From the NCBI GenBank assembly GCA_045589355.1, contig JAZNOW010000073.1:680-64679 (forward strand): DNA of 64,000 nt, in the 5' to 3' direction. The position numbers and the translations under genes were made by a program. Under the pieces are notes generated by a model. The model was not told the origin of the DNA, did not search any database, and worked only from the letters and a program-made list of their open reading frames with translations. Source of the stretch: Clostridia bacterium (lineage in GTDB: Bacteria > Bacillota > Clostridia > Christensenellales > Aristaeellaceae). Every line of letters starts with the position of its first letter. Position 1 is the stretch's first letter. This document shows, piece after piece, positions 3,150 through 58,154 of the stretch.

Positions 3150-3689
3150 GTGAATGCGTATGAAGTTCTGGGCCTGAAAGAAGGGGCGGATAAGCAGGAG
3201 GTGCACCGGGCATACCGGGCACTGGTGAAAACCTGCCACCCCGACCTGTTTGAGGATCCCGAACAGCGGAAGGTGGCCCAGCAGAAGCTGCTGGAGCTGA
3301 ACCAGGCCTATGAGATCGTCTACAAAAAGGCGGGGGAGGTGCCGGGTGCGCCCAGCTACCGCACCGTGCCTTTGGACCAGGCGCTGGATATTGCCGACAG
3401 GCTGCAGCAGCAGGGACGGTATGAAACGGCGCTTTTGCAGCTGGGCCGTGCGGAATTCAAGGACGACCGGTGGTTCTTTGTGGAAGGGAAAATCATGCTG
3501 GGCATGAAGCAGTACGGCACCGCCCATCAGGCCTTTCGGGAGGCGATCCGCCTGAACCCCGATAACCGGCAGTACCGGGAATATGCCCTGGAAGCGGCGC
3601 TGCTGATCAAAAAACACCAGAAGCTGCCCTACCGTGTGGCGGACTGGGCGGAAAGAACCTTCCGCTTCGGCAAGAAAAATCAGCTCTGA
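3150..3689 (+). CDS. J-domain (DnaJ-like) protein with TPR-like C-terminus
   Basis: GTG start. NAYEVLGL...AYRALVKTCHPDLF contains the HPD motif; the C-terminal half is helical-repeat-like. Confidence 0.75.
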   Translation: MNAYEVLGLKEGADKQEVHRAYRALVKTCHPDLFEDPEQRKVAQQKLLELNQAYEIVYKKAGEVPGAPSYRTVPLDQALDIADRLQQQGRYETALLQLGRAEFKDDRWFFVEGKIMLGMKQYGTAHQAFREAIRLNPDNRQYREYALEAALLIKKHQKLPYRVADWAERTFRFGKKNQL

Positions 3690-3702
3690 AAAGGAGAACA
3701 AC

Positions 3703-4215
3703 ATGAACCTGCCCAATAAACTGACCATTCTGCGTATCTGCATGATTCCTTTGTGCCTGCTGGCCTGGGCGCTGGGGGTGCACTGGCTGGCGGCGGCTAT
3801 TTTTGCACTGGCTGCCTTCACCGATTTTCTGGATGGTTATCTTGCAAGGAAAAACAACATCGTCACCACCTTCGGTAAGTTTGCCGATCCTGTGGCGGAC
3901 AAAATTCTGGTATTGACGGCTATGATCTTTCTCTGTGCCGACGGCCTTTTGCCCCACTGGGCGGTGGCCATTGTGGCGGCCAGGGAACTGATGGTGGACG
4001 GCCTGCGCATGGTGGCCTCCCAGAAAGGCGTGGTGATCGCCGCCGGCTGGCCGGGGAAGATAAAAACCAACCTGCAGATCTTCTGCATCCTGTGCGCCAT
4101 GATCATCGGCAAGCACATCGTAACGGATATTTTCATGTATGCCATGGCTCTGATGACCCTCATCAGCGGCGTGGAATATTTCAAAAACAGCTGGAAGCTG
4201 CTGAAAGATAATTAA
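3703..4215 (+). CDS. pgsA: CDP-diacylglycerol--glycerol-3-phosphate 3-phosphatidyltransferase
   Basis: ORF 3634..4215 trimmed to ATG 3703 behind AAAGGAG. CDP-alcohol phosphatidyltransferase motif DFLDGYLAR...GKFADPVADK. Confidence 0.88.
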   Translation: MNLPNKLTILRICMIPLCLLAWALGVHWLAAAIFALAAFTDFLDGYLARKNNIVTTFGKFADPVADKILVLTAMIFLCADGLLPHWAVAIVAARELMVDGLRMVASQKGVVIAAGWPGKIKTNLQIFCILCAMIIGKHIVTDIFMYAMALMTLISGVEYFKNSWKLLKDN

Positions 4216-4244
4216 TACGACACAGATAAAGGGAGGAAAAAAAG

Positions 4245-5342
4245 ATGGCCAAGAAAGCAAGCGAAAAAAAAGATATGAAAAACCTGGACGCCACCCTGCA
4301 GGAAAAGCAGCGGGCGCTGGAAATGACCCTCTCTTCCATCGAAAAGGAATTCGGTAAGGGTACCGTGATGAAGCTGGGCGAAAAGACCGCCATGCAGGTG
4401 GATACCGTGCCCACCGGCTGCCTGGACCTGGATATGGCGCTGGGCGTGGGGGGCATTCCCCGGGGGCGCATTATTGAAGTGTTCGGCCCGGAATCTTCCG
4501 GTAAAACCACGGTGGCCCTGCATGTGGTGGCTTCCGTGCAGAAAATGGGCGGCGCCGCTGCCTTTATTGACGCCGAACATGCGCTGGATCCTGCCTATGC
4601 CAAGAACCTGGGTGTGAACATTGACGAACTGTATGTGAGCCAGCCCAACTGCGGCGAAGACGCCCTGGAAATTGCAGAAGCGCTGCTGCGCTCCGGCGCC
4701 ATTGACATTGTGGTCATCGACTCTGTGGCCGCACTGGTGCCCCGTGCCGAAATCGACGGCGAAATGGGCGACAGCTTTGTGGGTGTGCAGGCCCGTCTGA
4801 TGAGCCAGGCCATGCGTAAACTGACCGGCGTGGTGGCCAAGACCAACGCCATCGCCCTGTTCATCAACCAGATCCGTGAAAAAGTGGGCGTGATGTACGG
4901 CAACCCCGAAACCACCCCCGGCGGCCGTGCCCTGAAGTTCTACGCTTCCGTGCGTCTGGACGTGCGCCGCGGCGAACAGCTGAAAAACGGCAGCGAAGTG
5001 GTGGGCAACCGCACCAAGGTGAAGGTGGTCAAGAACAAGGTGGCCCCGCCCTTCCGTTCCTGCGAATTTGACCTGATCTACGGCCAGGGCATTTCCAGGG
5101 AAGGCAGCCTGCTGGACCTGGCGGTGGAAAAGGATATCGTTCAGAAGAGCGGCGCCTGGTTCTCCTACAACGACCAGCGCATCGGCCAGGGCCGGGATAA
5201 CACCCGCCAGTTCCTGAAGGATCATCCCGAAATTGCGGACGAAATCGAAGCCGCCCTGCGGACGGTGATGAACCCCTCCGCCGTGCCCGCCGTGGATGCC
5301 GATAACATTCCCGAAATGAACCTGGACGCCGATGACGAATGA
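4245..5342 (+). CDS. recA: recombinase RecA
   Basis: [10 protein letters not shown]..., Walker [40 protein letters not shown]. Confidence 0.97.
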
Positions 5343-12394: not shown

Positions 12395-12428
12395 AAGCCG
12401 CGGTCTTCCTGGCCGCGGCTTTTCTTTG
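12395..12428 (+). terminator. rho-independent terminator after the GH3 gene
   Basis: GCCGCGG ... CCGCGGC stem followed by TTTTCTTT. Confidence 0.7.
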
Positions 12429-12864
12429 GGGGAGACCATGGAGGGGCGTTGCCCCCTCCACCCCCAGCAGGGACATTGTCCCTGCACCCAGAGGTGGAAT
12501 TGTAATATGTATCCGTCAAACAATTTTCCGGCGGTACAGCATAACACGCACACACATTTTCGCAAGAGAAAGATTGCATTTTTGCGAATTGGGTGTGGCA
12601 CTGCCGCCCACGGGCTGGGCGGTGTTCCACCGCCTGCCGGATGCTTAGGCATCCGGGGAAAACGAAAAAAAAGAAGCGGTGAGAGAATAAATTCTCTCAG
12701 CCGCTCTTTTTTTCGTTTTCATGGCGCCCGTGGCTGAAACCGCTTGGTTTTTTCAAGCAACATGCGAAAACAACCATTTTCGATACATCCTGTTTAGTCG
12801 CAGGAAGGGTGCAGGGCGGATCGCCCTGCCGAGGGGTACAGGGGGCGCGTAGCCCCCTGCTTCG
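12428..12864 (+). repeat. hairpin-rich mosaic intergenic element, full copy 1 (MITE/BIME-like)
   Basis: Homologous by eye over its whole length to 46879-47310 and to the reverse complement of 32443-32938. Two-hairpin end modules at both ends and a central long hairpin at 12658-12720. Confidence 0.8.
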
Positions 12865-12925
12865 TGGTTCTGTAAGCAGCACGCGGACACAACTTCTTCT
12901 AATCAATTTTGTTTTATCGCGCACT

Positions 12926-13010
12926 GGGTCAAGGGCCGATGGCCCTTGTGGGGCCAGGGGCAATGCCCCTGGTGCCGTGGTACGGGGGCTGCATAAGCCC
13001 CTGCCCGGTC
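12926..13010 (+). repeat. solo end module of the same repeat family (three GC-rich hairpins)
   Basis: CAAGGGCCGATGGCCCTTG, CCAGGGGCAATGCCCCTGG and GGGGCTGCATAAGCCCC..CTGCCCGGTC. The 3' part (GGTAC-GGGGGCTGCATAAGCCCCTGCCC-GTC) closely matches the 3' end of copy 3 at 47278-47310; the extra CCAGGGGCAATGCCCCTGG hairpin is the copy-2 type. It overlaps the stop codon of the convergent gene. Confidence 0.75.
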
Positions 13011-14100
13011 ACCGTTTCCGTTCAAAATGGTCGCAGGTGTATTGATAGCCGTCCCAGGCCCGGGTGCCGGTATCGGTGTGGGTGTATTGGAAGCCAAGGC
13101 TTTTGCACAGGTTGGCGGAAGGCGTGTTTTCCCGGAAGCAGCTGTAGAGGAAGGTGTGGCCGTCCAGCTTGTCAAAAGCCAGAGAAACCAATGCTTCCAG
13201 CATTTCCTTACCGTAGCCCTTGCGCTGATGAGCCCGGGTGATGCACAGGCCAAGTTCATCGAACACACCGGGGGCTACTTCCCGGATGCCGCCAAAGCCG
13301 ATGGGCACGTCCGTTTCCTTGAGGCAGACAAAATAGGTAAAATGGAGGGATTGCAGGGAAATGGTGCGTTCCATACGCCGGAGCGCTTCCTCCCGGGTGA
13401 GGGTGGGCTGCCACAGCATGTTTTGAGCCACTTCGGTATCGCTCCACACGTTGTGCCAGATGGCGTCCAGATCGCTTTTCCGGGCTTTTCGCAGCACAAG
13501 ACGTTCCGTTTCCAGCCGGCTGAATTTTTCCAGATTGTTCATATGCGCCAGCACGTTCAGGATGTTCTCTTCCCGGGGGATGATGATATCCGGATCCACC
13601 TCCGGATGGACGGATGCATAGGAAAGCAGCATGTCCATCAGGTTGTCCTTGGAGAGCATATAGTCCTGCACGATGGTTTGCGCATCGGCCCCCAGCTTTT
13701 TCAAAAGCAGGGCGGATACCACGCCGGTGCGGTCCTTGCCAGCGGTGCAGAAATACAGAACGCCCTGTGGTGCGGCCAGGATAACGTCCAGGATTCTGGC
13801 CATCCGTCCGTCCACCATATTCCGGTAGGTTTCGTGCAGGTGCGCCCGGGAACGGGGCGTATTGCCGCCTCCGGTGACGGGCAGGTGATGGTAACGGAAG
13901 GCAGGGTGAAGGGACAAGGGGCAGGGGCGGAGCAGCGTCTCCTCGGTAGAGCGCAGGTCCACCAGGGTGGTGATGCCATTTTCCAGCAGCCAGCATACTT
14001 CATCGCTGGTCAGGTTGAGCGGCGCATCGCTGCGCACAAAACGGCGATCGCCGACGGGCAGAAAGCGGGTGTTGAGGGTGGAGCGGAGCAGGGAAGACAT
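13009..14100 (-). CDS. protein-tyrosine phosphatase-like / GNAT N-acetyltransferase fusion protein
   Basis: The N-terminal half has the CX5R P-loop (FCTAGKDRTGV; Y_phosphatase3-like). The C-terminal half is RimJ/RimL-like GNAT (LETERLVLRKARKSD..., RAHQRKGYGKEMLEALV). Confidence 0.75.
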   Translation of the reverse strand: MSSLLRSTLNTRFLPVGDRRFVRSDAPLNLTSDEVCWLLENGITTLVDLRSTEETLLRPCPLSLHPAFRYHHLPVTGGGNTPRSRAHLHETYRNMVDGRMARILDVILAAPQGVLYFCTAGKDRTGVVSALLLKKLGADAQTIVQDYMLSKDNLMDMLLSYASVHPEVDPDIIIPREENILNVLAHMNNLEKFSRLETERLVLRKARKSDLDAIWHNVWSDTEVAQNMLWQPTLTREEALRRMERTISLQSLHFTYFVCLKETDVPIGFGGIREVAPGVFDELGLCITRAHQRKGYGKEMLEALVSLAFDKLDGHTFLYSCFRENTPSANLCKSLGFQYTHTDTGTRAWDGYQYTCDHFERKR

Positions 14101-29149: not shown

Positions 29150-30493
29150 TTATTTCACTAAATTCTCTGCTTTCAGGGCGTTGACGATATGATCCACGCA
29201 CTTGTCGCACAGTTCCTGCCGGCTGCATTCGGCCATGACGCGGATGACGGGCTCGGTGCCGCTCTTGCGAAGGAGAATGCGGCCGTCGCCATTGAGCATT
29301 TCTTCCGCTTCCCGCTTGGCCTGCTGCACCTTTTCGTTGTTCAGGGCCTGTTCTTTATCAATGACCCGCACGTTTTTGAGCACCTGGGGGTAGAACACCA
29401 AAGGCTCCACCAGCTTGGACAGGGGCTGCTTCTGCTCCAGCATGGCCTGCATCACCTTGATGGCGGTGAGCATGCCGTCGCCGGTGGTGGCGTACTTGGA
29501 GAAGATGATGTGGCCGCTGTTTTCGCCGCCCAGCACATGGCCGCCGTTGCGCATGGCTTCGTACACAAAGCGGTCGCCCACCTGGGTCTGCATCAGGTCG
29601 ATATCCAGCTTTTCCAGGGCTTTGCCCAGGCCGAAATTGCTCATCACGGTGCCCACGATGGTGTTGGTGAGCAGCTTATCCCGCTTTTTCAGGTAAGCGC
29701 CGTACAGGTACATGATGGCGTCGCCGTCCACCAGGTTGCCGTTTTCGTCCACGGCCAGGCAGCGGTCCGCGTCGCCGTCAAAGGCAAAGCCGATATCCAG
29801 CCCCTTTTCCTTGACGAACTTTTGCAGCACGTCAATGTGGGTGGAGCCGGCATTCACGTTCACGTTGGTGCCGTTGGGCTCGTTATTGATGACGAACGTC
29901 TGGGCGCCCAGGGCATCGAACACGGATTTGGCGATCATCCAGGTGCTGCCGTTGGCGCAGTCCAGGCCCACCTTGATGCCCTTATAGCTCTGGGTGGCCA
30001 GGGAGATAAGGTAGCCGATGTAGCGGTTGCGGCCGGAGGCATAGTCCACCGTTTTGCCGATCTTGTCGCCGGTGGCATAGGGCACTTCGGGGATCAGCCC
30101 GTCGATGTACTGTTCCACCATGTCGGTCACGTCGTCGCTCATCTTTTCGCCCTTGCCGTTGATCAGCTTGATGCCGTTATCCTGGTAGGGGTTATGGCTG
30201 GCGGTGATCATGATGCCGCAGTCGAATTCGTCAATGCGGGTGATGTAGGCAACGGAGGGGGTGGTGGTGACGTGGAGCAGGTACACATCGGCGCCGCTGG
30301 CCATGAGACCTGCGGCCAGCGCGTATTCAAACATGTAGCTGGACAGGCGGGTATCCTTGCCGATGACCACCTTGGCCTTGTGGCCCCGGCCGTAATAATA
30401 GCCCACATAGCGGCCTACTTTAAAGGCATGGTCCACCGTCAGGTTGATATTGGCTTCGCCGCGGAAGCCGTCAGTTTCAAAATACTTACCCAT
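29150..30493 (-). CDS. glmM: phosphoglucosamine mutase
   Basis: ORF trimmed to ATG 30493 behind GGAGGAAAG. MGKYFETDGFRG, active-site TASHNPYQDNGIK. Confidence 0.93.
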   Translation of the reverse strand: MGKYFETDGFRGEANINLTVDHAFKVGRYVGYYYGRGHKAKVVIGKDTRLSSYMFEYALAAGLMASGADVYLLHVTTTPSVAYITRIDEFDCGIMITASHNPYQDNGIKLINGKGEKMSDDVTDMVEQYIDGLIPEVPYATGDKIGKTVDYASGRNRYIGYLISLATQSYKGIKVGLDCANGSTWMIAKSVFDALGAQTFVINNEPNGTNVNVNAGSTHIDVLQKFVKEKGLDIGFAFDGDADRCLAVDENGNLVDGDAIMYLYGAYLKKRDKLLTNTIVGTVMSNFGLGKALEKLDIDLMQTQVGDRFVYEAMRNGGHVLGGENSGHIIFSKYATTGDGMLTAIKVMQAMLEQKQPLSKLVEPLVFYPQVLKNVRVIDKEQALNNEKVQQAKREAEEMLNGDGRILLRKSGTEPVIRVMAECSRQELCDKCVDHIVNALKAENLVK

Positions 30494-30627
30494 ATACTTT
30501 CCTCCGAAACGGAAGCGGTAAAGCTTCAAAATTCTATGCAGATTATAGCATATTCCGTTTCATAAAACAATATGCATCCATGAAGAAACGCCTCCTGCCC
30601 CGGATTTGGCAGAAGGCGTGGCCTTTT

Positions 30628-32266: not shown

Positions 32267-32442
32267 ATCCTTCCCTCCAAACGATCAAAGTAATCACAAA
32301 AACCTGCAATTACTTTATCATAGTATGCGCGTTTTGTAAAGAATGATGCAAGTTTTTCGGAATATGCGTGAAAAAACAAAAGTTTTTTTAGAATGCTGTT
32401 GTTCGTAAAAAAGAAGCAGTGTCCGCTTGCAGCTTGGGGAAC

Positions 32443-32938
32443 GACGGGGCAGGGGGCTCCTCGCCCCCTGTACCCTCACGCCAGGGGCATTGCCCCTGGA
32501 CCCTTCCTGCGATGCAGAAGATTGCTTTTCCAAACTTCTTTCCGCATGTTCCTTGGGGAAACGAAACGAGAACCCACGGGCGCAATGAAAACGAAAAAAA
32601 GAGCGGATGAGAGAATTTATTCTCTCACCGCTTCTTTTTTACCGTTTTCCCCGGATGCCCAAGCATCCGGTTGGCGGTGTAGCACCGCCCAGCCCGTGGG
32701 GCGGGTGGCAGTACCACTTCCAATTCGCAATGCAATAATCGTCGCTTGCAATCGGGTTTCTGCGTGGCGGCAGTGCCGCAGCCAATTCGCAAAGAAACGA
32801 TCTTCCTCTGCGAAAGAGTGTGTGCGTGTTACGCGTTTTCACCGGGAATCTGTTTGTTTGATGCAAATTGCAATTTCCGGAAATGGGTCCAGGGGCAATG
32901 CCCCTGGTGGGGTGTGGGGCAACGCCCCATGAATCCCC
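32443..32938 (-). repeat. hairpin-rich mosaic intergenic element, copy 2 (inverted orientation, with internal duplication)
   Basis: Its reverse complement aligns by eye end-to-end with copies 1 and 3. The GCGAATTGG..GGCACTGCC box occurs twice. Central hairpin at 32587-32649. Confidence 0.8.
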
Positions 32939-32940
32939 GT

Positions 32941-34014
32941 TTACTTTCGTTTCATGAACAGTATCTTCCCGGGGCAGGGGGAATCGGGGTTGCCGGTGGG
33001 GCCCCAGGCGCAGCCGCCCTTGCAGTGCAGGCAGGTGCCGGTATCCCGGCCGGCCAGGGCATCGCTGGCGAAATTGTAATTTACCAGATGGCCGCGGCCC
33101 ACGTCGATGCCGTCAATACCGGTCAACGCCAGCACCCCCCGGGCCATTTCGCCGTCGGTGATCATGTCCACGCTGAACACAGGGGTATCCGGCAGCATTT
33201 CCTTGATTTTCATGGCGGCATAGAAGGAGGGCCGATAGGGGAAAGAGGCAGGGCAGGCAGACACGTCGCTGTCGATGCCGTAGGAGATATCCAGGAAATC
33301 CACATACGGGGCCAGGGCCCTGGCATGGCGCAGGCCGTCCTCCATGGTGGGCTCAAAAGCCGCCAGGCGGATGCCGACGCAAAAATCCTTACCGCAGGCA
33401 ATGCGGATGGATTCCAGAATTTCTTTGACAAAAAGGGTTCTGTCTTCGCCGTATTCGTCGGTACGGTGGTTGACTTTGCTGCTCAAAAACTGGCTGAGCA
33501 GATAGCCGTGGCAGCCGTGCAATTCCACCCCGTCCAGCCCGGCCGCCTTGCACCGCAGGGCTGCCTTGACGAAGGCATTGCGGATGTACACAATGCGGTC
33601 CAGCGTCATTTCCTTGCCGGGGGTATGGTGGGGGTGGGTGGGAACATAATCGCTGGGGCAGTCGGCCACATCGTCAATGCCGTTGATGCCGGCGTGATGG
33701 ATCTGGGCCAGCAAGGGCGTGCCGTTTTCGTGGCACACTTCCGCCAGGCGCTTCCAGCCTTCGATCTGCTCATCTTCCCACAGCCCCAGCTGAGTTTCGT
33801 GCAGCCTGCCCCGCTTGGTGACGCACACGGCTTCGGAAAAAATGACGCCGGCGCCGCCCTGGGCCAGGGCGCGGTAGTGGGCGATGTTGCGGGGGGTGAC
33901 CATGCCGGTATCGTCCGTCCAGTCAAAGCACACCATGGCGGGCACGGCAATGCGGTTTTTGACGGTGACGGGCCCCATTGTAAAGCTGTCGGACAGCTGT
34001 TTCATACAATGCAC
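32941..34014 (-). CDS. NADH:flavin oxidoreductase (Old Yellow Enzyme family)
   Basis: VKNRIAVPAM, QIHHAGI, GLDGVELHGCHGYLLSQFLS. Cys-rich C-terminal tail CLHCKGGCAWG. Confidence 0.85.
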   Translation of the reverse strand: MHCMKQLSDSFTMGPVTVKNRIAVPAMVCFDWTDDTGMVTPRNIAHYRALAQGGAGVIFSEAVCVTKRGRLHETQLGLWEDEQIEGWKRLAEVCHENGTPLLAQIHHAGINGIDDVADCPSDYVPTHPHHTPGKEMTLDRIVYIRNAFVKAALRCKAAGLDGVELHGCHGYLLSQFLSSKVNHRTDEYGEDRTLFVKEILESIRIACGKDFCVGIRLAAFEPTMEDGLRHARALAPYVDFLDISYGIDSDVSACPASFPYRPSFYAAMKIKEMLPDTPVFSVDMITDGEMARGVLALTGIDGIDVGRGHLVNYNFASDALAGRDTGTCLHCKGGCAWGPTGNPDSPCPGKILFMKRK

Positions 34015-45243: not shown

Positions 45244-46509
45244 TTATTTCAGCAAAGCGGCGGTTTCTTCCGCTGCGGTTTCAAGGGAAAATTCCACTTC
45301 TTCCCGGGTCTGCATGTTGCGCACTTTCACCGTGCCCCGGGCGTATTCGTCGCCGCCCATGATGGCCACATACCTGGCGTTCACCTTATCGGCAAACTTG
45401 AACTGGGCCTTGAGGGAACGGCCGCACACGTCGCAGTCGGCCTTTACGCCGGCCTTGCGCAGGGCCTGGGTGAAGGTGAAGGCAGGCACGGCCATATCGG
45501 CGCCCAGGTTGGCCACATAGACGTCGGTGATGCCGGGGTTTTCGGGCAGCAGGCCCTGGGTGGTCAGCTCAATGAGGATGCGTTCGATGCCGATGCCAAA
45601 GCCGGCAGCAGGGGTGGCGGGGCCGCCCAGCTCTTCCACCAGCTTATCGTACCGGCCGCCGCCGCAAAGGGCCAGGCCTTCCCGGCCGGACTGCATGATG
45701 ATTTCAAACACCGTCTTGGTGTAATAATCCAGGCCGCGCACAATGCGGGGATCCAGCGCGAAGGGGATGTTTGCCGCGGTCAGAAGCGTCTGCAGCTTTT
45801 CGAAGTGGCTGCCGCAGTCATCGCACAGGCAGTCCAGAATGGAGGGCGCGTCTTTCACGATGGCCTTGCACTTTTCTTCCTTGCAGTCCAGGATGCGCAG
45901 AGGGTTCTTGGCAAAGCGTTCCTGGCAGGTGGGGCACATATCGGACAGCCTTTCGCCCAGGTATTCCTTCAGCTTCTGGTGGTACCGGGGCCGGCATTCG
46001 GGGCAGCCGATGGAATTGATGTGCACGGACAGGTTCTTCAGCCCCAGCCCGCCCAGCAATTCAAACAGGGCGCAGATCAGTTCTGCTTCCACGGTGGGTT
46101 CCTTGCCGCCAAAGCATTCCATGCCGAACTGGTGGTGTTCGCGAAGACGGCCGGCCTGGGGCTTTTCATAGCGGAAAATGGGGGCGGCCAGGTAATACAT
46201 TTTGCAGGGCAGCGCTTCGTTATACAGTTTGCCTTCAATGAAGGCGCGCACGGCGCCGGCAGTGCCTTCGGGCTTGAGGGTGATGGAGCGTTCGCCCTTG
46301 TCCAGGAAGGTGTACATTTCCTTGGTGACGATGTCGCTGGTGTCGCCCACGCCGCGCTGGAAGAGCTCGGTGTGTTCAAAGACGGGGGTGCGCACTTCCC
46401 GGTAACCCCAGCGGGCGGCCAGGGAACGCATTTTTGCTTCTACATATTGCCACTGATATGCGTCCTGGGGCAGCATATCTTTTGTGCCTTTGGGTGCCTG
46501 TGTGAGCAT
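45244..46509 (-). CDS. hisS: histidine--tRNA ligase
   Basis: ORF trimmed to ATG 46509 behind [45 protein letters not shown]. Confidence 0.95.
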   Translation of the reverse strand: [421 protein letters not shown]

Positions 46510-46526
46510 AAGTTGTAAACCCTCCT

Positions 46527-46752
46527 GATAAAAAAATACGCCCATGCCCTATGCATGGGACGAAGTTCACTTCGCGGTGCCACCCAGCTTGAAAGGCAAT
46601 GCCTTTCCGCTTTCTTTTCCGTAACGCTGAAATGCGCCTGCTCTCGCAGGAGGCTCCGGGGTGTCCCATCCGTGCGGCGATGCGCTGCTTTCAGCCGGGG
46701 CGGCGCTCTCTTTGATCGCAACTGACCGGATTTCTTCCCATCATTGCCGGTG
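46527..46752 (-). promoter_or_regulatory. T-box riboswitch leader (His specifier) controlling hisS-aspS
   Basis: Minus strand: stem I AGAGAG and GCUGAAAGC elements. His codons CAU/CAC lie in GCGCAUCGCCGCACGG. T-box core UGGGUGGCACCGCG (46587-46573). Terminator CCCAUGC..GCAUGGG plus U7 (46560-46531). Confidence 0.85.
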
Positions 46753-46759
46753 TTTTCTT

Positions 46760-46788
46760 ATTATAAAAGGAAAAAACCAAGATGTCAA
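46760..46788 (-). promoter_or_regulatory. consensus sigma-70 promoter of the hisS T-box leader
   Basis: Minus strand: TTGACA (46788-46783), 17-nt spacer, TATAAT (46765-46760). Confidence 0.7.
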
Positions 46789-46878
46789 CAAAATTCAGAA
46801 TTCAGAATGAAGAATTCAGAATTGGGGTTTGTTGGTGATGAAAGGCTGTATCTTTCATACAGTTTCCCGGTGAAGCTT

Positions 46879-47310
46879 GGGGGACGATGCGGGGTTTCAC
46901 CCCTGCACCCCACCAGGGGCATTGCCCCTGGACCCTTTTTCCGGAAACAGCAATTCGTATCACACAAACAGTTTCCCGGTGGAACAGAGCATCACGCAGA
47001 CACACATTCGCAGAGGAAGATTGTATTTTTGCGAATTGGCTGCGGCACTGCCGCACCACGGGCTGGGCGGCGGAACGCCGCCAACCGGATGCTGTGCATC
47101 CGGGGAAAACATGAAAAAAGATCGGAGGGAAAGCAAGCTTTCCCGGCCGACTTTTTTCAATGTTTTCATAGTGCCCGTGTGCTTTCGTTTCGCTTTTCCA
47201 AGCAACATGCGGAAAGAAGTTTGGAAAAACAGTTGTCTGCATCGCAGGAAGGGTGCAGGGCCGATGGCCCTGCTGCGGGGTACAGGGGCTGCATAAGCCC
47301 CTGCCCCGTC
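46879..47310 (+). repeat. hairpin-rich mosaic intergenic element, copy 3 (reference copy)
   Basis: The 5' end (46879-46940) is an imperfect inverted copy of the 3' end (47249-47310). Central hairpin at 47105-47167. Homologous to copies at 12.4, 32.4 and 54.3 kb. Confidence 0.8.
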
Positions 47311-47321
47311 ATTTCCTGGAA

Positions 47322-47354
47322 AGCAAAAGAAAAGAGAGGGGCGAACCCCTCTCT
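47322..47354 (-). terminator. rho-independent terminator of pgm
   Basis: Minus strand: AGAGAGGGG-TTCG-CCCCTCTCT followed by TTTCTTTTG. Confidence 0.7.
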
Positions 47355-47400
47355 GTGATTGTAAACCAGCAATTCTGAATTCTTAATTCTTCATTCTGAA

Positions 47401-49116
47401 TTATTTCATGATTTCCTGGGCAGCAGCGGTGAGCTGAGCGTTCAGGGCATCGGTGGCTTCCTGGGTATCCGCCTTGGTGGCCACGTAGAGCTTGATCTTG
47501 GGCTCGGTGCCGCTGGGACGGATGCACAGCCAGTTGTTGTTTTCCAGTTCGAAGTAGAGCACGTTGGACTTGGGATAATCCAGCTTTTCTTCCTTGCCGT
47601 CGGCAATGCGGATGGAGCGGCCGAAGTCCCGGATGCCGGTGACCTTCAGGCCGGCCAGTTCAGCGGGAGGATTGTTGCGCAGGTTATCCATGATGCCCTT
47701 CATCTTTTCCACGCCGTCCTTACCGGGAAGCACCACAGAATGGCCGGTTTCCTTGTAGTAGCCGTACTTGCGGTACAGCTTCTGCAGGGCGTCGTAGAGG
47801 GTTTCGCCGCGGTCCATGCAGGCGCAGGTGGTTTCGCACAAAAGCAGGGAGGCGTTGACGCCGTCCTTGTCGCGCACCTGGGTGCCGGAGAGGTAGCCGA
47901 AGCTTTCTTCGAAGCCGAAGACGAAGGTATGGTCGCCCTTTTCTTCGAACTGCTGGATCTTTTCGCCGATGAACTTGAAGCCGGTGAGCACGTCAAAGAT
48001 CGGGATGCCGTAATCGTCGCAGATGGCCTTGGCCAGGTTTGTGGACACAACGGACTTCACGGCAGCGGCGTTTGCGGGCAGGGTGCCGTTGGCTTTGCGG
48101 CTTTCCAGGATGTGGCTGAGCATCAGGCAGGCGATCTGGTTGCCGGTGAGGGTACGCCAGATGCCGTCCTTGTCTTTCACGGCGCAGCCCAGGCGGTCGC
48201 AGTCAGGGTCGGTGCCGAAGACGGTGGTGGCGCCCACTTCTTCTGCCAGCGGGATGGCCATTTTGAAGGCGGCGGGGTCTTCAGGGTTGGGCGCGGTGAC
48301 GGTGGGGAAGCGGCCGTCGGGGGCTTCCTGTTCCTTGACCACAGTGACCATGGTGATGCCCAGTTCCTTAAGCAGGCGGCGCACCGGCACGTTGCCGGAG
48401 CCGTGCAGGGGGGTGTAGACGATGTTCAGGTCCGCGCCCCGCTTTTCCAGCAGTTCCGGACGCAGGGACAGGGTTTTCACCATTTCGATGTAATCATCGT
48501 CCACTTCCTTGTTGCCGATGATCTGCAAAAGGCCCTTGGCCTTGGCTTCTTCTTCCGCCATGGGCACGCATTCTTCGTACTGAAGGGCGTTGATGCTGGC
48601 GATGATTTCATCTGCCACGTCGGGGCCGATCTGCGCGCCGTCTTCGCCGTACACCTTGTAGCCGTTGTACTGGGGCGGGTTATGGCTGGCGGTGATGATG
48701 ACACCGGCAGCAGTGCCCAGATGGCGCACGGAATAGGAAAGGATGGGCACAGGGCGCAGGGATTCAAACAGGTAGGCCTTGATGCCGGCAGCGGCCAGGG
48801 TGAGGGCGGTTTCCTTGGCGAACACGTCGCTCTTGATGCGGCTGTCGTAGGCCACCACAACGCCCTTGTTTTCGGTGCCGTGGGCCTTGATGTAGCGGGC
48901 CAGGCCCATCGTGGCGCGGCGCACGTTGTATACGTTCATGCGGTTGGTGCCCATGCCCAATACACCGCGCAGGCCGCCGGTGCCGAAGGCCAGGCTGGTA
49001 TAAAAGCGATCTTCAATTTCTTTTTCGTCGTTTTCGATGGATTTCAGTTCAGCAATGGTTTCTTCATCCGCAGCAAAGCGGGTAAGCCAGCTTTTGTATT
49101 CTTCCATATAGCCCAT
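47401..49116 (-). CDS. phospho-sugar mutase (phosphoglucomutase/phosphomannomutase, PgcA-like)
   Basis: FGTGGLRG, active-site TASHNPPQYNGYKVY, GTDPDCDR. Confidence 0.9.
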   Translation of the reverse strand: MGYMEEYKSWLTRFAADEETIAELKSIENDEKEIEDRFYTSLAFGTGGLRGVLGMGTNRMNVYNVRRATMGLARYIKAHGTENKGVVVAYDSRIKSDVFAKETALTLAAAGIKAYLFESLRPVPILSYSVRHLGTAAGVIITASHNPPQYNGYKVYGEDGAQIGPDVADEIIASINALQYEECVPMAEEEAKAKGLLQIIGNKEVDDDYIEMVKTLSLRPELLEKRGADLNIVYTPLHGSGNVPVRRLLKELGITMVTVVKEQEAPDGRFPTVTAPNPEDPAAFKMAIPLAEEVGATTVFGTDPDCDRLGCAVKDKDGIWRTLTGNQIACLMLSHILESRKANGTLPANAAAVKSVVSTNLAKAICDDYGIPIFDVLTGFKFIGEKIQQFEEKGDHTFVFGFEESFGYLSGTQVRDKDGVNASLLLCETTCACMDRGETLYDALQKLYRKYGYYKETGHSVVLPGKDGVEKMKGIMDNLRNNPPAELAGLKVTGIRDFGRSIRIADGKEEKLDYPKSNVLYFELENNNWLCIRPSGTEPKIKLYVATKADTQEATDALNAQLTAAAQEIMK

Positions 49117-54201: not shown

Positions 54202-54308
54202 AGCGTTTTATCTCCTAACCGGCGTTATAAACGCCCATATTCACACAGCCTATATTATAATGGAATAAAGGGTTTCTTGCAAGGGTCTGCGGCAAATTTC
54301 GGGGCGCT

Positions 54309-54585
54309 GGGAGACGATGCGGGGTTTCACCCCTTTACCCCACCAGGGGCATTGCCCCTGGACCCAGTAGCGGATGTTGCTTGGCGTATCGAACAAACAT
54401 TTTCCCGCTGTTATCATGAGAAAAAAGGCTCCCTTGTGGAAAGGAAGCTGGCCCGTAGGGCCTGAGGGATTGCCGTTTCCTCCATCAACATGCGGAAACA
54501 ACCCTGTTAGATAAAATTGTCTTTCGCACTCTGGGTCCAGGGCCGATGGCCCTGGTGCGGGGTACAGGGGACGAGCAGTCCCCTG
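54309..54585 (+). repeat. hairpin-rich mosaic element, copy 4 (short, centrally deleted derivative)
   Basis: Its 5' module is nearly identical to copy 3 (GACGATGCGGGGTTTCACCCCT..CCACCAGGGGCATTGCCCCTGGACCC). It keeps the CAACATGCGGAAAC box and the 3' module (GGGTCCAGGGCCGATGGCCCTGGTGCGGGGTACAGGGG..CCCCTG). The central long hairpin is missing. Confidence 0.7.
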
Positions 54586-54663
54586 ATTTGTCCTTTGCAG
54601 CAAAATTTCCGGCACGAATGGGAAAAAGTGCGGGAAAGGGGGCAGAAAAATGAGAAAAAAAGC

Positions 54664-56298: not shown

Positions 56299-56326
56299 AG
56301 TCCGGAGAAATCCGGGCTGTTTTTTT
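56299..56326 (+). terminator. rho-independent terminator
   Basis: AGTCCGGA-GAAA-TCCGGGCT followed by GTTTTTTT. Confidence 0.65.
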
Positions 56327-56406
56327 ATGGAAAAATTGATCGAAAGGGCGGCTTCATTCGTCTTATAGGGTGAAGAATGCATTTTTCCAAGGAAAGGAAC
56401 AAACCA

Positions 56407-56883
56407 ATGACGGAACAGGAATTTGACAGCCGGGTGCGGCAGATGGAGGGGAAAATGTACCGCATGGCCCGTTGCATGCTGCGCAGCGACTCCGACTGCG
56501 GCGATGCCCTGCAAAATGCGGTGTTTGCCGCGTGGCGGAAATTGCCTTCCCTTCGGGAGGAAGCACAGTTTGAAGCGTGGCTGATGCGGATCCTTTTGAA
56601 CGCCTGCCGGGATGTTCAAAGGGGGTATCTGCGCCGCAAAGGGGAATTGCCCATGGAGGAAGCGCTGCATGCTGCTTCTGCACCGCCCCGGGATGTGGAC
56701 TTGCAAATTGCTTTGCAAACATTGCCGGAAAAATTCCGCCTGCCCATCCTGCTCCATCATATGAACGGCCTTTCCGTGCCGGTGATTGCCCGGGTGCTGC
56801 GGTTGCCTCAGAGTACGGTGAAAGGCCGCATCCGGGAAGGACTGAAAAAGCTGCGCAGGCTGCTGGAGGAGGAAAAAGGATGA
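56407..56883 (+). CDS. ECF-type RNA polymerase sigma factor (second copy in window)
   Basis: Region 2 DALQNAVFAAWRKLPSLREEAQFEAWLMRILLNACRD. Region 4 LPEKFRLPILLHHMNGLSVPVIARVLRLPQSTVKGRIREGLKKL. Confidence 0.85.
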   Translation: MTEQEFDSRVRQMEGKMYRMARCMLRSDSDCGDALQNAVFAAWRKLPSLREEAQFEAWLMRILLNACRDVQRGYLRRKGELPMEEALHAASAPPRDVDLQIALQTLPEKFRLPILLHHMNGLSVPVIARVLRLPQSTVKGRIREGLKKLRRLLEEEKG

Positions 56884-58112
56884 ACGATATCCATTTTGAG
56901 AACGCATTTCCTTCGGTTCCGGCTGTGGTGCATTTGCAGTTGGAAAAAGCATTGGAGGAAAAGAACATGAACCTGAACAAAGCAAAACGGCCTGTGGCTG
57001 TATTGATACTGGTGTTGGTATTGCTGCTGGGATTGATGGGCATTGCTTATGCAGCCACTCGGGGTGGTATTTTGGATTTTGCCAAAGAACATGGGGAAAT
57101 GGCAGAGCCTGCTTATCTGATAGACGACCTGGAGAAAAGTGCATACAGCCTGAAAGATCCGCGCTTCCGGTATGACCGTACAAGAGGGTATGTGTGGGCA
57201 ACGAGCGATTCGAAATTGGTGAAGGTCGAGCTGGAGGAACTTTTGTTTGAAAAAGGGTGGCTTTATGCTGCAATGACGGTAACTCCCTGCCAGCCTAAAA
57301 CCATGGTGATCGGAACAGACCTGGAAATAAAAGATGCAGAAACAGGAAAGGTTCAATTGCATCTGCTTGGCGGTCTGACCGATATCACAGAACCCGGAAG
57401 CATGAAAGCGTATGTGGCGGAAGGAGAGGAAACGGGCCTTTTATCTGTGTACGAATATGCGCGGCAGAAGGGGTTTGAACAGGTGATCCGGGTGGCTGTA
57501 TCCCGGGAAATGAAATATGCAGATTATGAGCTGATGGAAGATGGTTCCATGCGTATGATTGTGCAGATGAAAACGGTGTCGCAGGAGAAAGCGGAATTTA
57601 CGGAACACATCAGAATGGTGAACCTGTTATTGACTGCCGTGCAGTATGATGAGAAAGGCCGGATGCCGGAGGAATATGAAAAGCACGAAATGGTGGAGGT
57701 GCAGTTTGTCGGGCCGGAATATGTGGATCATCGCATCAAAGCAAGTATTTCCGAAGATAGCCATTACCTGAAGGGATTTCGGATTACGATGGATCAGGTG
57801 ATTATGGTTCCGGTAAGTGAAACAGAAATGAGCATCATCCTTCGAATCAGGGAAGATAGGTACGGACAGGATTTGCGCAACATGAAGGGGCCTGTTGCGA
57901 TGATATTGAGCGAAACAGGAGAAGTGTTGTACGAATATGCCCTGGAATGGGAGAAGATAGACCGGGATGCCCTGCTCTATTATGAAGAGGGTGTTCAGTT
58001 TCGGATAACGATGCCCCGGGAGGGATTGTCAGACGACAGGATCACCATTCGGCTGCATAATGCACAAAACCGGAAAATTGTCTATGATAACTACACCTAT
58101 ACGCTGAAATGA
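56880..58112 (+). CDS. putative anti-sigma factor / single-pass membrane protein with large extracytoplasmic domain
   Basis: ATGA overlap with the sigma gene stop. TM segment VAVLILVLVLLLGLMGIAYA. ORF 56577 trimmed to ATG 56880. Confidence 0.6.
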   Translation: MNDIHFENAFPSVPAVVHLQLEKALEEKNMNLNKAKRPVAVLILVLVLLLGLMGIAYAATRGGILDFAKEHGEMAEPAYLIDDLEKSAYSLKDPRFRYDRTRGYVWATSDSKLVKVELEELLFEKGWLYAAMTVTPCQPKTMVIGTDLEIKDAETGKVQLHLLGGLTDITEPGSMKAYVAEGEETGLLSVYEYARQKGFEQVIRVAVSREMKYADYELMEDGSMRMIVQMKTVSQEKAEFTEHIRMVNLLLTAVQYDEKGRMPEEYEKHEMVEVQFVGPEYVDHRIKASISEDSHYLKGFRITMDQVIMVPVSETEMSIILRIREDRYGQDLRNMKGPVAMILSETGEVLYEYALEWEKIDRDALLYYEEGVQFRITMPREGLSDDRITIRLHNAQNRKIVYDNYTYTLK

Positions 58113-58125
58113 AAAAGCGGTTGTC

Positions 58126-58154
58126 AGCCCGGAGAGATCCGGGCTTTTTGTTTG
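58126..58154 (+). terminator. rho-independent terminator
   Basis: AGCCCGGA-GAGA-TCCGGGCT followed by TTTTGTTT. Confidence 0.7.

Follow-up and report, generated by a model that had tools for sequence, protein, structure and literature searches.

A REP/BIME-like family of modular intergenic repeats with a four-way junction core in uncultured gut Clostridia

The closest described systems to the element reported here are repetitive extragenic palindromic (REP) sequences, bacterial interspersed mosaic elements (BIMEs) and the REPIN-RAYT systems of Proteobacteria, all of which employ short, GC-rich, imperfect palindromes with a conserved head adjoining the stem. REPs and BIMEs are present in many extragenic copies, form mosaics with conserved linker motifs and inverted arrangements, vary between strains in the number of units, and are inherited vertically at the same sites over long periods. 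[quoted passage not shown] Modular, non-coding intergenic repeats are also found in a Gram-positive host: the BOX elements of Streptococcus pneumoniae (boxA-boxB(n)-boxC) contain one type of module in tandem, in variable number. BOX elements fold stably, as does the family reported here, and no transposase is known to serve them. The Correia elements of Neisseria, enterobacterial ERIC/IRU and pneumococcal RUP are likewise intergenic and multi-copy and possess terminal inverted repeats; they can be co-transcribed with neighbouring genes and can affect transcript ends. Here we describe a repeat family first seen in a 64,000-nt stretch of DNA (the window) from a Clostridia bacterium of the Aristaeellaceae (assembly GCA_045589355.1, contig JAZNOW010000073.1, positions 680 to 64,679, forward strand), taking as reference the copy that lies between hisS and pgm at window positions 46878-47322.

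The structural, copy-number and inheritance features of REPs and BIMEs listed above recur in this family, together with a near-identical distribution (mostly convergent, then tandem, and some 1-3% divergent) and the same proposed role, that of a two-way terminator and protector of 3' ends. With moderate confidence we read the element as a REP/BIME-like, modular, non-autonomous and non-coding repeat that probably functions as a two-way terminator and is spread by an enzyme recognizing its hairpins; within one clade of uncultured gut Clostridia it would have spread through the DNA between genes. [quoted passage not shown] The family is set apart by its size, by end modules of 110 nt that are inverted and repeated, and by a conserved core in the form of a four-way junction. 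The family itself appears to be undescribed: literature searches by topic and by literal sequence motif returned no description of it, and a comparison of positions 46700-47450 with Rfam, at E values up to 10 and with ribozymes and HEARO included, gave noise of 22 bits or less (the whole window yielded nothing at gathering score), in keeping with an earlier reading of the letters (the original prediction), which could assign the block to no named family.

The reference copy (copy D) is full length, comprising a left module, a core and a right module. Its parts are as follows.

46848-46877, plus strand: tail box (GTATC..CAGTTTCCCGGTG) left over from a second, outer left module whose own hairpin part is missing here
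46878-46990, plus strand: left end module, consisting of head GGGGGACGATG, hairpins 1 and 2, spacer and tail box
46889-46906, plus strand: left-module hairpin 1
46913-46931, plus strand: left-module hairpin 2, trailed by a T-run and terminator-like in a scan
46957-46981, plus strand: left-module tail box
46991-47056, plus strand: variable linker, found in one subfamily only and present or absent among aligned copies
47028-47039, plus strand: linker box TTTGCGAATTGG
47040-47055, plus strand: small linker hairpin CTGCGGCACTGCCGCA
47057-47179, plus strand: core, a four-way junction of 123 nt formed by P0, P1, P2 and P3
47057-47063 pairing with 47173-47179: core stem P0, CACGGGC/GCCCGTG
47066-47082: core hairpin P1
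47085-47103: core hairpin P2, CCGGATGC/GCATCCGG with the loop between them, a perfect palindrome
47105-47167: core P3, the long arm of 30 bp, with A-run, stem and T-run and a 1x2 internal loop
47180-47312, plus strand: right end module, consisting of head box, a further segment, hairpin A, GGGGTAC linker, hairpin B and terminus
47203-47215, plus strand: right-module head box CAACATGCGGAAA
47242-47254, plus strand: right-module segment TCGCAGGAAGGGT
47255-47273, plus strand: right-module hairpin A, with the GGGGTAC linker after it
47283-47303, plus strand: right-module hairpin B, with terminus CCCCGTC at 47304-47310

Each end module is about 110 nt long and is made of a GC-rich hairpin doublet, a spacer of about 35 nt and a box, TTTCCCGGTG in left modules and its counterpart CATGCGGAAA in right modules. 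Units inside one module are direct; left and right modules, about 330 nt apart, are mutually inverted, and both conserve the hairpin head GGGT(A/G)C. The inversion is apparent in profile searches, where the whole-element profile also matches the reverse strand of the element (E 1.9e-13) and the right-end profile matches 46884-46940 on the minus strand (27 bits). The right-module consensus reads TCGCAG-NNN-GGGT-S-CAGGG....CCCTG-S-YGC-GGGGTAC-AGGGG......CCCCTG-CYYCGT, so that the head before the stem is GGGT-S for hairpin A and GGGGTAC for hairpin B, both differing from GTAG. Both strands of copy D fold far better than shuffled sequence does (z = -9.6 and -9.75). The original prediction of a non-coding, hairpin-rich block with inverted ends thus holds, including the two boxes (TTTGCGAATTGG and CAACATGCGGAAA) that it had picked out. 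The interior hairpins it had placed at 47066-47082 and 47105-47167 are exact, and the one at 47086-47104 is a single base off (47085-47103); it had not noticed that these hairpins together form one conserved four-way junction whose long arm resembles a bidirectional terminator. A 13-nt direct repeat that it had reported beside the left end is also real, and belongs to a 25-nt repeat (46848-46872 and 46957-46981, from a repeat search) corresponding to the left module's conserved tail box. Since 46848-46872 is the remnant of an outer left module, the composite begins at about 46848; a relative, locus L101, still has a hairpin unit beyond the outer tail box at the position matching 46848-46877.

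Across 44 distinct cores P0 and P2 are invariant (44 of 44) and P1 and P3 covary; P3 keeps its 1x2 internal loop, as judged by eye in the alignment, and its flanks, an A-run 5' and a T-run 3', recur. RNAalifold predicted 38 pairs, 14 of them with compensatory changes. Cells were paired in 96.1% of cases, compared to 43-52% with the partners slid by 1-3 columns, and double-change cells numbered 146 compared to 51 ± 7.6 in shuffles, a level reached by none of 500 shuffles. For right modules (n = 42) 18 pairs were predicted, five with compensatory changes, and the inner pairs of both hairpins alternate between G-C, C-G, A-U and U-A. The covariation argues that a folded single strand, of DNA or RNA, is under selection; P0 and P2 are constrained in sequence as well, as expected of recognition by a protein. 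A seemingly conserved G-U pair at the base of P3 was discarded as an artefact of alignment, GAAAAC and GTTTTC pairing perfectly.

Besides copy D the window contains four copies, established by repeat search and four-way alignment.

12428-12900, plus strand: copy A, full left-core-right element between convergent GH3 and phosphatase/GNAT genes
12917-13011, plus strand: copy B, a lone right-type module of three hairpins, 40 nt downstream of copy A
32411-32945, minus strand: copy C, full, with the linker box duplicated internally (about 80 nt)
54308-54604, plus strand: copy E, coreless, with a left module, two-hairpin interior and right module, between the back-to-back gpmI and rpsF promoters

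Four further copies had been predicted, at approximately these positions, and the repeat search and alignment confirm them. Copy C abuts the stop codon of a flavin oxidoreductase gene, upstream of the DeoR promoter. As the copies differ by many insertions and deletions, it would seem that no reading frame is kept across them, as the original prediction had also held. Copies A and C carry, beyond the last hairpin, a tail of about 35 nt (AAGCWGCAMGCGGACAC..CTTCTT; 12866-12898 and 32411-32443) that copy D lacks, and hence the right boundary of the family varies by copy. The interior of copy E (54410-54485) is a separate two-hairpin module (GGCTCCCTTGTG.AAAGGGAGC plus GGCCCGYAGGGCC), which recurs in L038 (about 3560-3620) and in L119 and L120 (about 4180-4260). 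It also sits between left module and core in composites of other genomes, which means that the family has at least one further interchangeable module.

The family extends well beyond the window. Scanning a single genome for each species with the 19-nt hairpin CCAGGGGCATTGCCCCTGG gave at least 97 loci, and a profile built from four window copies detected the whole element in 59 of the 97 loci listed from that scan, all 59 in metagenome-assembled genomes (MAGs) of ruminant and human gut origin that carry the label Clostridia or Clostridiales (RGIG2992, RGIG6199, RGIG1827, RGIG3115, SIG363, SIG368 and SGB_3086). Over their full length these copies are some 70-78% identical to those of the window. 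This is a multi-copy family, as the original prediction had proposed, with dozens of copies in related gut Clostridia, and it is modular, the prediction having hinted that end modules duplicate or move independently: the layout is a constant one to three tandem left modules, one core, and one to three tandem right modules, the exceptions being lone modules and a two-hairpin module that replaces or accompanies the core. A further 13 loci found by scanning a metagenome collection with a core pattern left this layout unchanged. Left and right modules each number about 100 copies in the DNA examined, with hairpin units of about 19-21 nt, and all are intergenic. At least 26 contig ends among the loci listed from the hairpin scan fall inside a copy, and it is at copy E that contigs with the rpsF of the window break off, as expected of a high-copy repeat that breaks assemblies. 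The element was absent from the plasmid collection searched; a phage collection yielded no element and only two 45-nt hairpin matches in phage contigs, and no core was found in the IMG/VR viral contigs.

The genomic location of the copies is far from even. Classification of 35 clusters, using a crude gene caller based on G+C content at third codon positions (GC3) that was checked solely on four window loci, all of them correct, placed 23 (66%) between convergent genes, 11 (31%) between tandem genes (5 sense, 6 antisense) and just one (3%) between divergent genes; background gene pairs in the same loci comprised 40 convergent, 189 tandem and 48 divergent pairs. The enrichment for convergent pairs is marked (odds ratio 11.4, p = 3.5e-10). 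Many copies begin 10 nt or less from a stop codon, and in L011 (6492-6877) the element occupies all the space between two stop codons. The window's sole copy in a divergent context, copy E, is without the terminator-like core. The distribution bears out the BIME-like reading offered by the original prediction, which had overlooked the strong preference for the 3' ends of genes. From the distribution we infer that, away from gene 3' ends, the element is neither tolerated nor selected.

A possible reason lies in P3, whose layout (A-run on the 5' side, stem-loop, T-run on the 3' side) is such that both strands read as a stem followed by a U-tract. P3 is probably an intrinsic terminator working in both directions and, together with the GC-rich end hairpins, it would stop transcripts arriving from either side and protect their 3' ends. 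At the reference locus, copy D would shield the hisS promoter and its T-box leader from read-through out of pgm. A two-way terminator would explain why copies are retained almost exclusively at gene 3' ends and in either orientation.

The copies are both stable and changeable. Retention at the same site across species is evident in the pairs L009/L088, L044/L058, L014/L075 and L075/L089, where flanks are 85-91% identical. Strains with nearly identical flanks differ by one extra hairpin unit in copy E; in a relative with a pgm protein 98% identical, one more left module and one more right module are present, along with a different pgm terminator; and two samples that share an identical oxidoreductase protein differ in module content. 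At the oxidoreductase-DeoR locus of L123 (88% protein identity) the element is missing and an ordinary terminator is found instead. Elsewhere, the element is present in L063 and absent in L028, and in SIG363 the element beside pgm is reversed in orientation. The element is present in the pgm relatives L101 and L103; the contexts in L105 and L104 are rearranged. Mean pairwise identity between cores is only about 71-75%, within genomes and between them, but in MAG RGIG2992 a masked all-against-all comparison found cores 96.7-98.3% identical at three loci without flank similarity, which argues for recent copying; two of these three loci, aligned with their flanks, differ in their left modules too. 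Termini vary between copies, some of which open directly with hairpin 2. No target-site duplication was found at paralogous copies aligned with their flanks, a weak test given that element-free sites are not alignable: the spacers of L028 and L123 are unrelated to the filled sites, and neither boundaries nor duplications can be read from them.

As to spread, we suggest that an enzyme acting in trans and recognizing folded hairpins brings about the copying, loss and exchange of units and modules. The most plausible candidate is a RAYT-like tyrosine (Y1/HUH) transposase, with recombination between copies probably contributing as well. A separate case of apparent change was set aside. In MAG RGIG6199 two contigs (L071 5390-5864 and L045 216-692) have flanks 98% identical and identical outermost hairpins, while inside these the element is reversed, at an identity of only about 72%. 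It may be that strains binned together differ by a replacement or an inversion, or that the assembly is chimeric at the repeat, and the apparent inversion is not relied on here.

A lead as to the enzyme comes from another phylum. A Pirellulales MAG (L004, CAVTBU010000008.1) contains a 153-aa Y1_Tnp gene (3393-3854, minus strand; PF01797 match, E 2.7e-24), homologues of which are named 'REP element-mobilizing transposase RayT' by JGI. On both sides the gene is flanked by inverted hairpin doublets (3281-3326 and 3924-3969), which contain CCAGGGGCAA(T/C)GCCCCTGG together with a GGGCC..GGCCC partner, and thus both hairpin types of the Clostridial end modules: the former matches the left end of copy D and the latter resembles hairpin A at the right end. 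The likeness is confined to the hairpins, for the L004 doublets lack both tail boxes and a core. A hairpin of this kind can, then, be the REP of a RayT system. In several other Planctomycetota loci the hairpin lies inside a longer palindrome, GGGTCCAGGGGCAATGCCCCTGGACCC.

Several points weigh against the reading given above. The enzyme it calls for was not encountered: no transposase, of the Y1, RAYT or any other type, turned up in the window or across some 60 clade loci of up to 8 kb, in searches that included a scan for HUH/Y1 motifs and a tblastn with a RayT protein. Clustering the open reading frames (ORFs) of 59 loci and inspecting those between modules revealed no ORF that recurs beside or inside the elements, and the DNA examined holds no autonomous insertion sequence (IS) or ORF-bearing version with the element's ends. 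The neighbours are housekeeping genes (such as dnaN, dnaE, recF, ABC ATPases, glycosidases, hisS and pgm); the original prediction, too, saw no transposase nearby. For Clostridia the L004 gene is no more than a weak lead, since it was with this hairpin that the loci had been searched for. Among the comparisons made there was no clean pair of filled and empty sites, leaving termini and target duplication undefined, and the turnover that we observe could be due to recombination alone. As to the proposed function, P3 was passed over by a simple terminator consensus scan, for which the 1x2 internal loop is probably responsible, and at the copy D locus pgm already has a terminator of its own; the activity of the element as terminator and insulator is something we infer from its layout and position, the latter counted with the crude gene caller already mentioned.

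The comparison with described systems is also not seamless. Enterobacterial REPs are unrelated in sequence and have the head GTAG, where that of the family is GGGT(A/G)C; at about 450 nt the element is much larger than known REPINs, and its 123-nt junction core has no counterpart in REPs or BIMEs. These differences, too, count against a simple equation with REPs. Furthermore, in contrast to REPs and BIMEs, units within a module form direct doublets, and modules are about 110 nt long with a distal TTTCC(C)G..TG box; and, unlike REPIN-RAYT systems, no RAYT gene was found in the clade DNA examined, the host being a Firmicute lineage (Clostridia). BOX elements differ in repeating their middle module, whereas the family repeats its end modules; they are smaller, lack a terminator-like core and show no sequence similarity. 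Correia elements, ERIC and RUP have fixed ends, whereas those of the family vary by whole modules with no duplication seen, and for Correia and RUP there are defined target duplications and a candidate partner IS.

Three alternative explanations were considered. The original prediction had named MITE and BIME-like mosaic side by side, and of the two it is the BIME-like mosaic that fits better. A classical MITE, a deleted derivative of a DDE-type IS mobilised in trans through its terminal inverted repeats with duplication of the target, would account for long, imperfect terminal inverted repeats on a non-coding element of less than 600 bp, for many copies in both orientations and for near-identical copies at unrelated loci. 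However, none of the ends examined showed a target duplication, termini are not fixed, none of the loci holds an IS with matching ends, and tandem end modules with gain and loss of single units are unusual for cut-and-paste MITEs; we regard this explanation as improbable. We are just as doubtful that the cores are structured RNA genes or modules (for example a small RNA, a ribozyme or a scaffold RNA for the protein of a mobile element), with the DNA repeat secondary. Strong covariation, a multi-branched structure and invariant stems close to the junction are what such an RNA would display, and the plus strand folds slightly better in 40 of the 44 cores. This last excess was rejected as evidence of RNA. 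It is mirrored in the end modules, where plus-strand folding is better in right modules (80 to 9) and minus-strand folding in left modules (54 to 25), and it follows module orientation and G-rich linkers and not a single transcript. Nor did copy alignment and promoter scan find a conserved promoter upstream of the core; orientation relative to genes is random (the 5 sense and 6 antisense clusters above), the 3' strand of the closing stem lies past the terminator-like hairpin, no protein gene is a constant neighbour, and Rfam, as noted, offers no match.

That the element is immobile is a third view, and we consider it unlikely. Here it would be a terminator or protein-binding cassette kept by the host, perhaps a nucleoid or topology site; its spread would be ancient, and its present changes due only to slippage, gene conversion and homologous recombination between copies. 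Retention at orthologous sites between species, the low mean identity between cores within as well as between genomes, and the invariance of P0 and the palindrome P2, as expected for protein-binding sites, are all compatible with it, as is the lack of orientation bias relative to local GC skew (16 cores to 22). Against it stand the near-identical cores at unrelated loci of one genome, the differences between relatives in presence, absence and orientation at the same site, and the fact that some 100 dispersed copies still require an original mechanism of spread. All three explanations are less well supported than a REP/BIME-like repeat. A bolder form of the latter, which we put forward tentatively and hold to be rather unlikely, is that the family is the Firmicute counterpart of the REPIN-RAYT 'domesticated replicator': a self-contained mobile terminator cassette whose junction core is recognized by an undescribed mobilising or processing protein. 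P0, P2 and the 1x2 loop of P3 would be the site of recognition or assembly, on folded single-stranded DNA or on RNA, and the host would retain the cassette because of the gene-end function that it supplies.

Should the REP/BIME-like reading be correct, REP/BIME-type biology, studied mainly in Proteobacteria, would extend to Clostridia, in a family that offers a conserved junction structure for a putative partner protein. Family repeats cover about 3% of the window, and extrapolation from four sites in 64 kb suggests about 100 sites per genome. Because copies form the entire spacer between many convergent genes, the family would also be a main source of terminators and of structure in 3' untranslated regions in these poorly known gut bacteria. 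Its variation between strains means that copies could serve as strain markers.

On the practical side, copies fragment metagenome assemblies and create long spurious ORFs. Stop-free frames run over the GC-rich repeat at 46744-47358 (plus) and 32393-32932 (plus), for example, with 204 and 179 aa, and in all-against-all comparison ORFs derived from the repeat group as 'protein families', a trap for annotation. Public contigs contain called genes without a Pfam match over the repeat (e.g., L103 5239-5814 and L120 4216-4809).

The genes beside the window copies are ordinary (GH3, phosphatase/GNAT, flavin oxidoreductase, DeoR, hisS, pgm, gpmI and rpsF). Copy D is bounded by the pgm terminator and the hisS promoter, and its surroundings are as follows.

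45244-46545, minus strand: hisS, the gene downstream of copy D
46553-46753, minus strand: T-box leader of hisS, downstream of the hisS promoter (83.7 bits, E 6e-19)
46788-46760, minus strand: hisS promoter, a perfect TTGACA-17-TATAAT of sigma-70 type
47331-47354, minus strand: pgm terminator
47401-49116: pgm, the upstream gene, a phosphoglucomutase-type mutase (Pfam domains checked)

The T-box leader was missed by the default Rfam scan because its 83.7 bits fall below the gathering score of 93. For the pgm protein of the window, a look-up of exact matches gave no entry. An AT-rich repeat of 7-nt units (AATTCAGAATGAAGAATT...) is present at 46792-46824 (plus) and 47370-47402 (minus). The two arms are a 33-nt inverted pair, 91% complementary, that encloses the pgm terminator and copy D, one arm directly after the pgm stop codon and the other touching the -35 box of hisS. 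The motif also occurs in L009 (2632-2660), L054 (3719-3745), L028 (1-33 and 286-318) and L103 (5215-5241 and 5803-5829), and in other species it is found right after stop codons, before a GGGAGGG..CCCTCCC terminator; in the close relative L101 it is absent on both sides. Perhaps it is a small repeat family in its own right, perhaps a motif of 3' untranslated regions.

Elsewhere in the window, positions 56300-58150 form a patch of lower GC content (0.495) and strong GC skew that holds an ECF-type sigma factor gene (56377-56883; Sigma70_r2 and r4) followed by a long ORF. The latter could encode an anti-sigma partner, and the patch may be acquired DNA. Finally, a 96-nt direct repeat, 71% identical (30123-30218 and 48611-48706), lies inside ORF 29150-30559 and pgm; it is outside the hairpin family and probably reflects paralogous phosphohexomutases.

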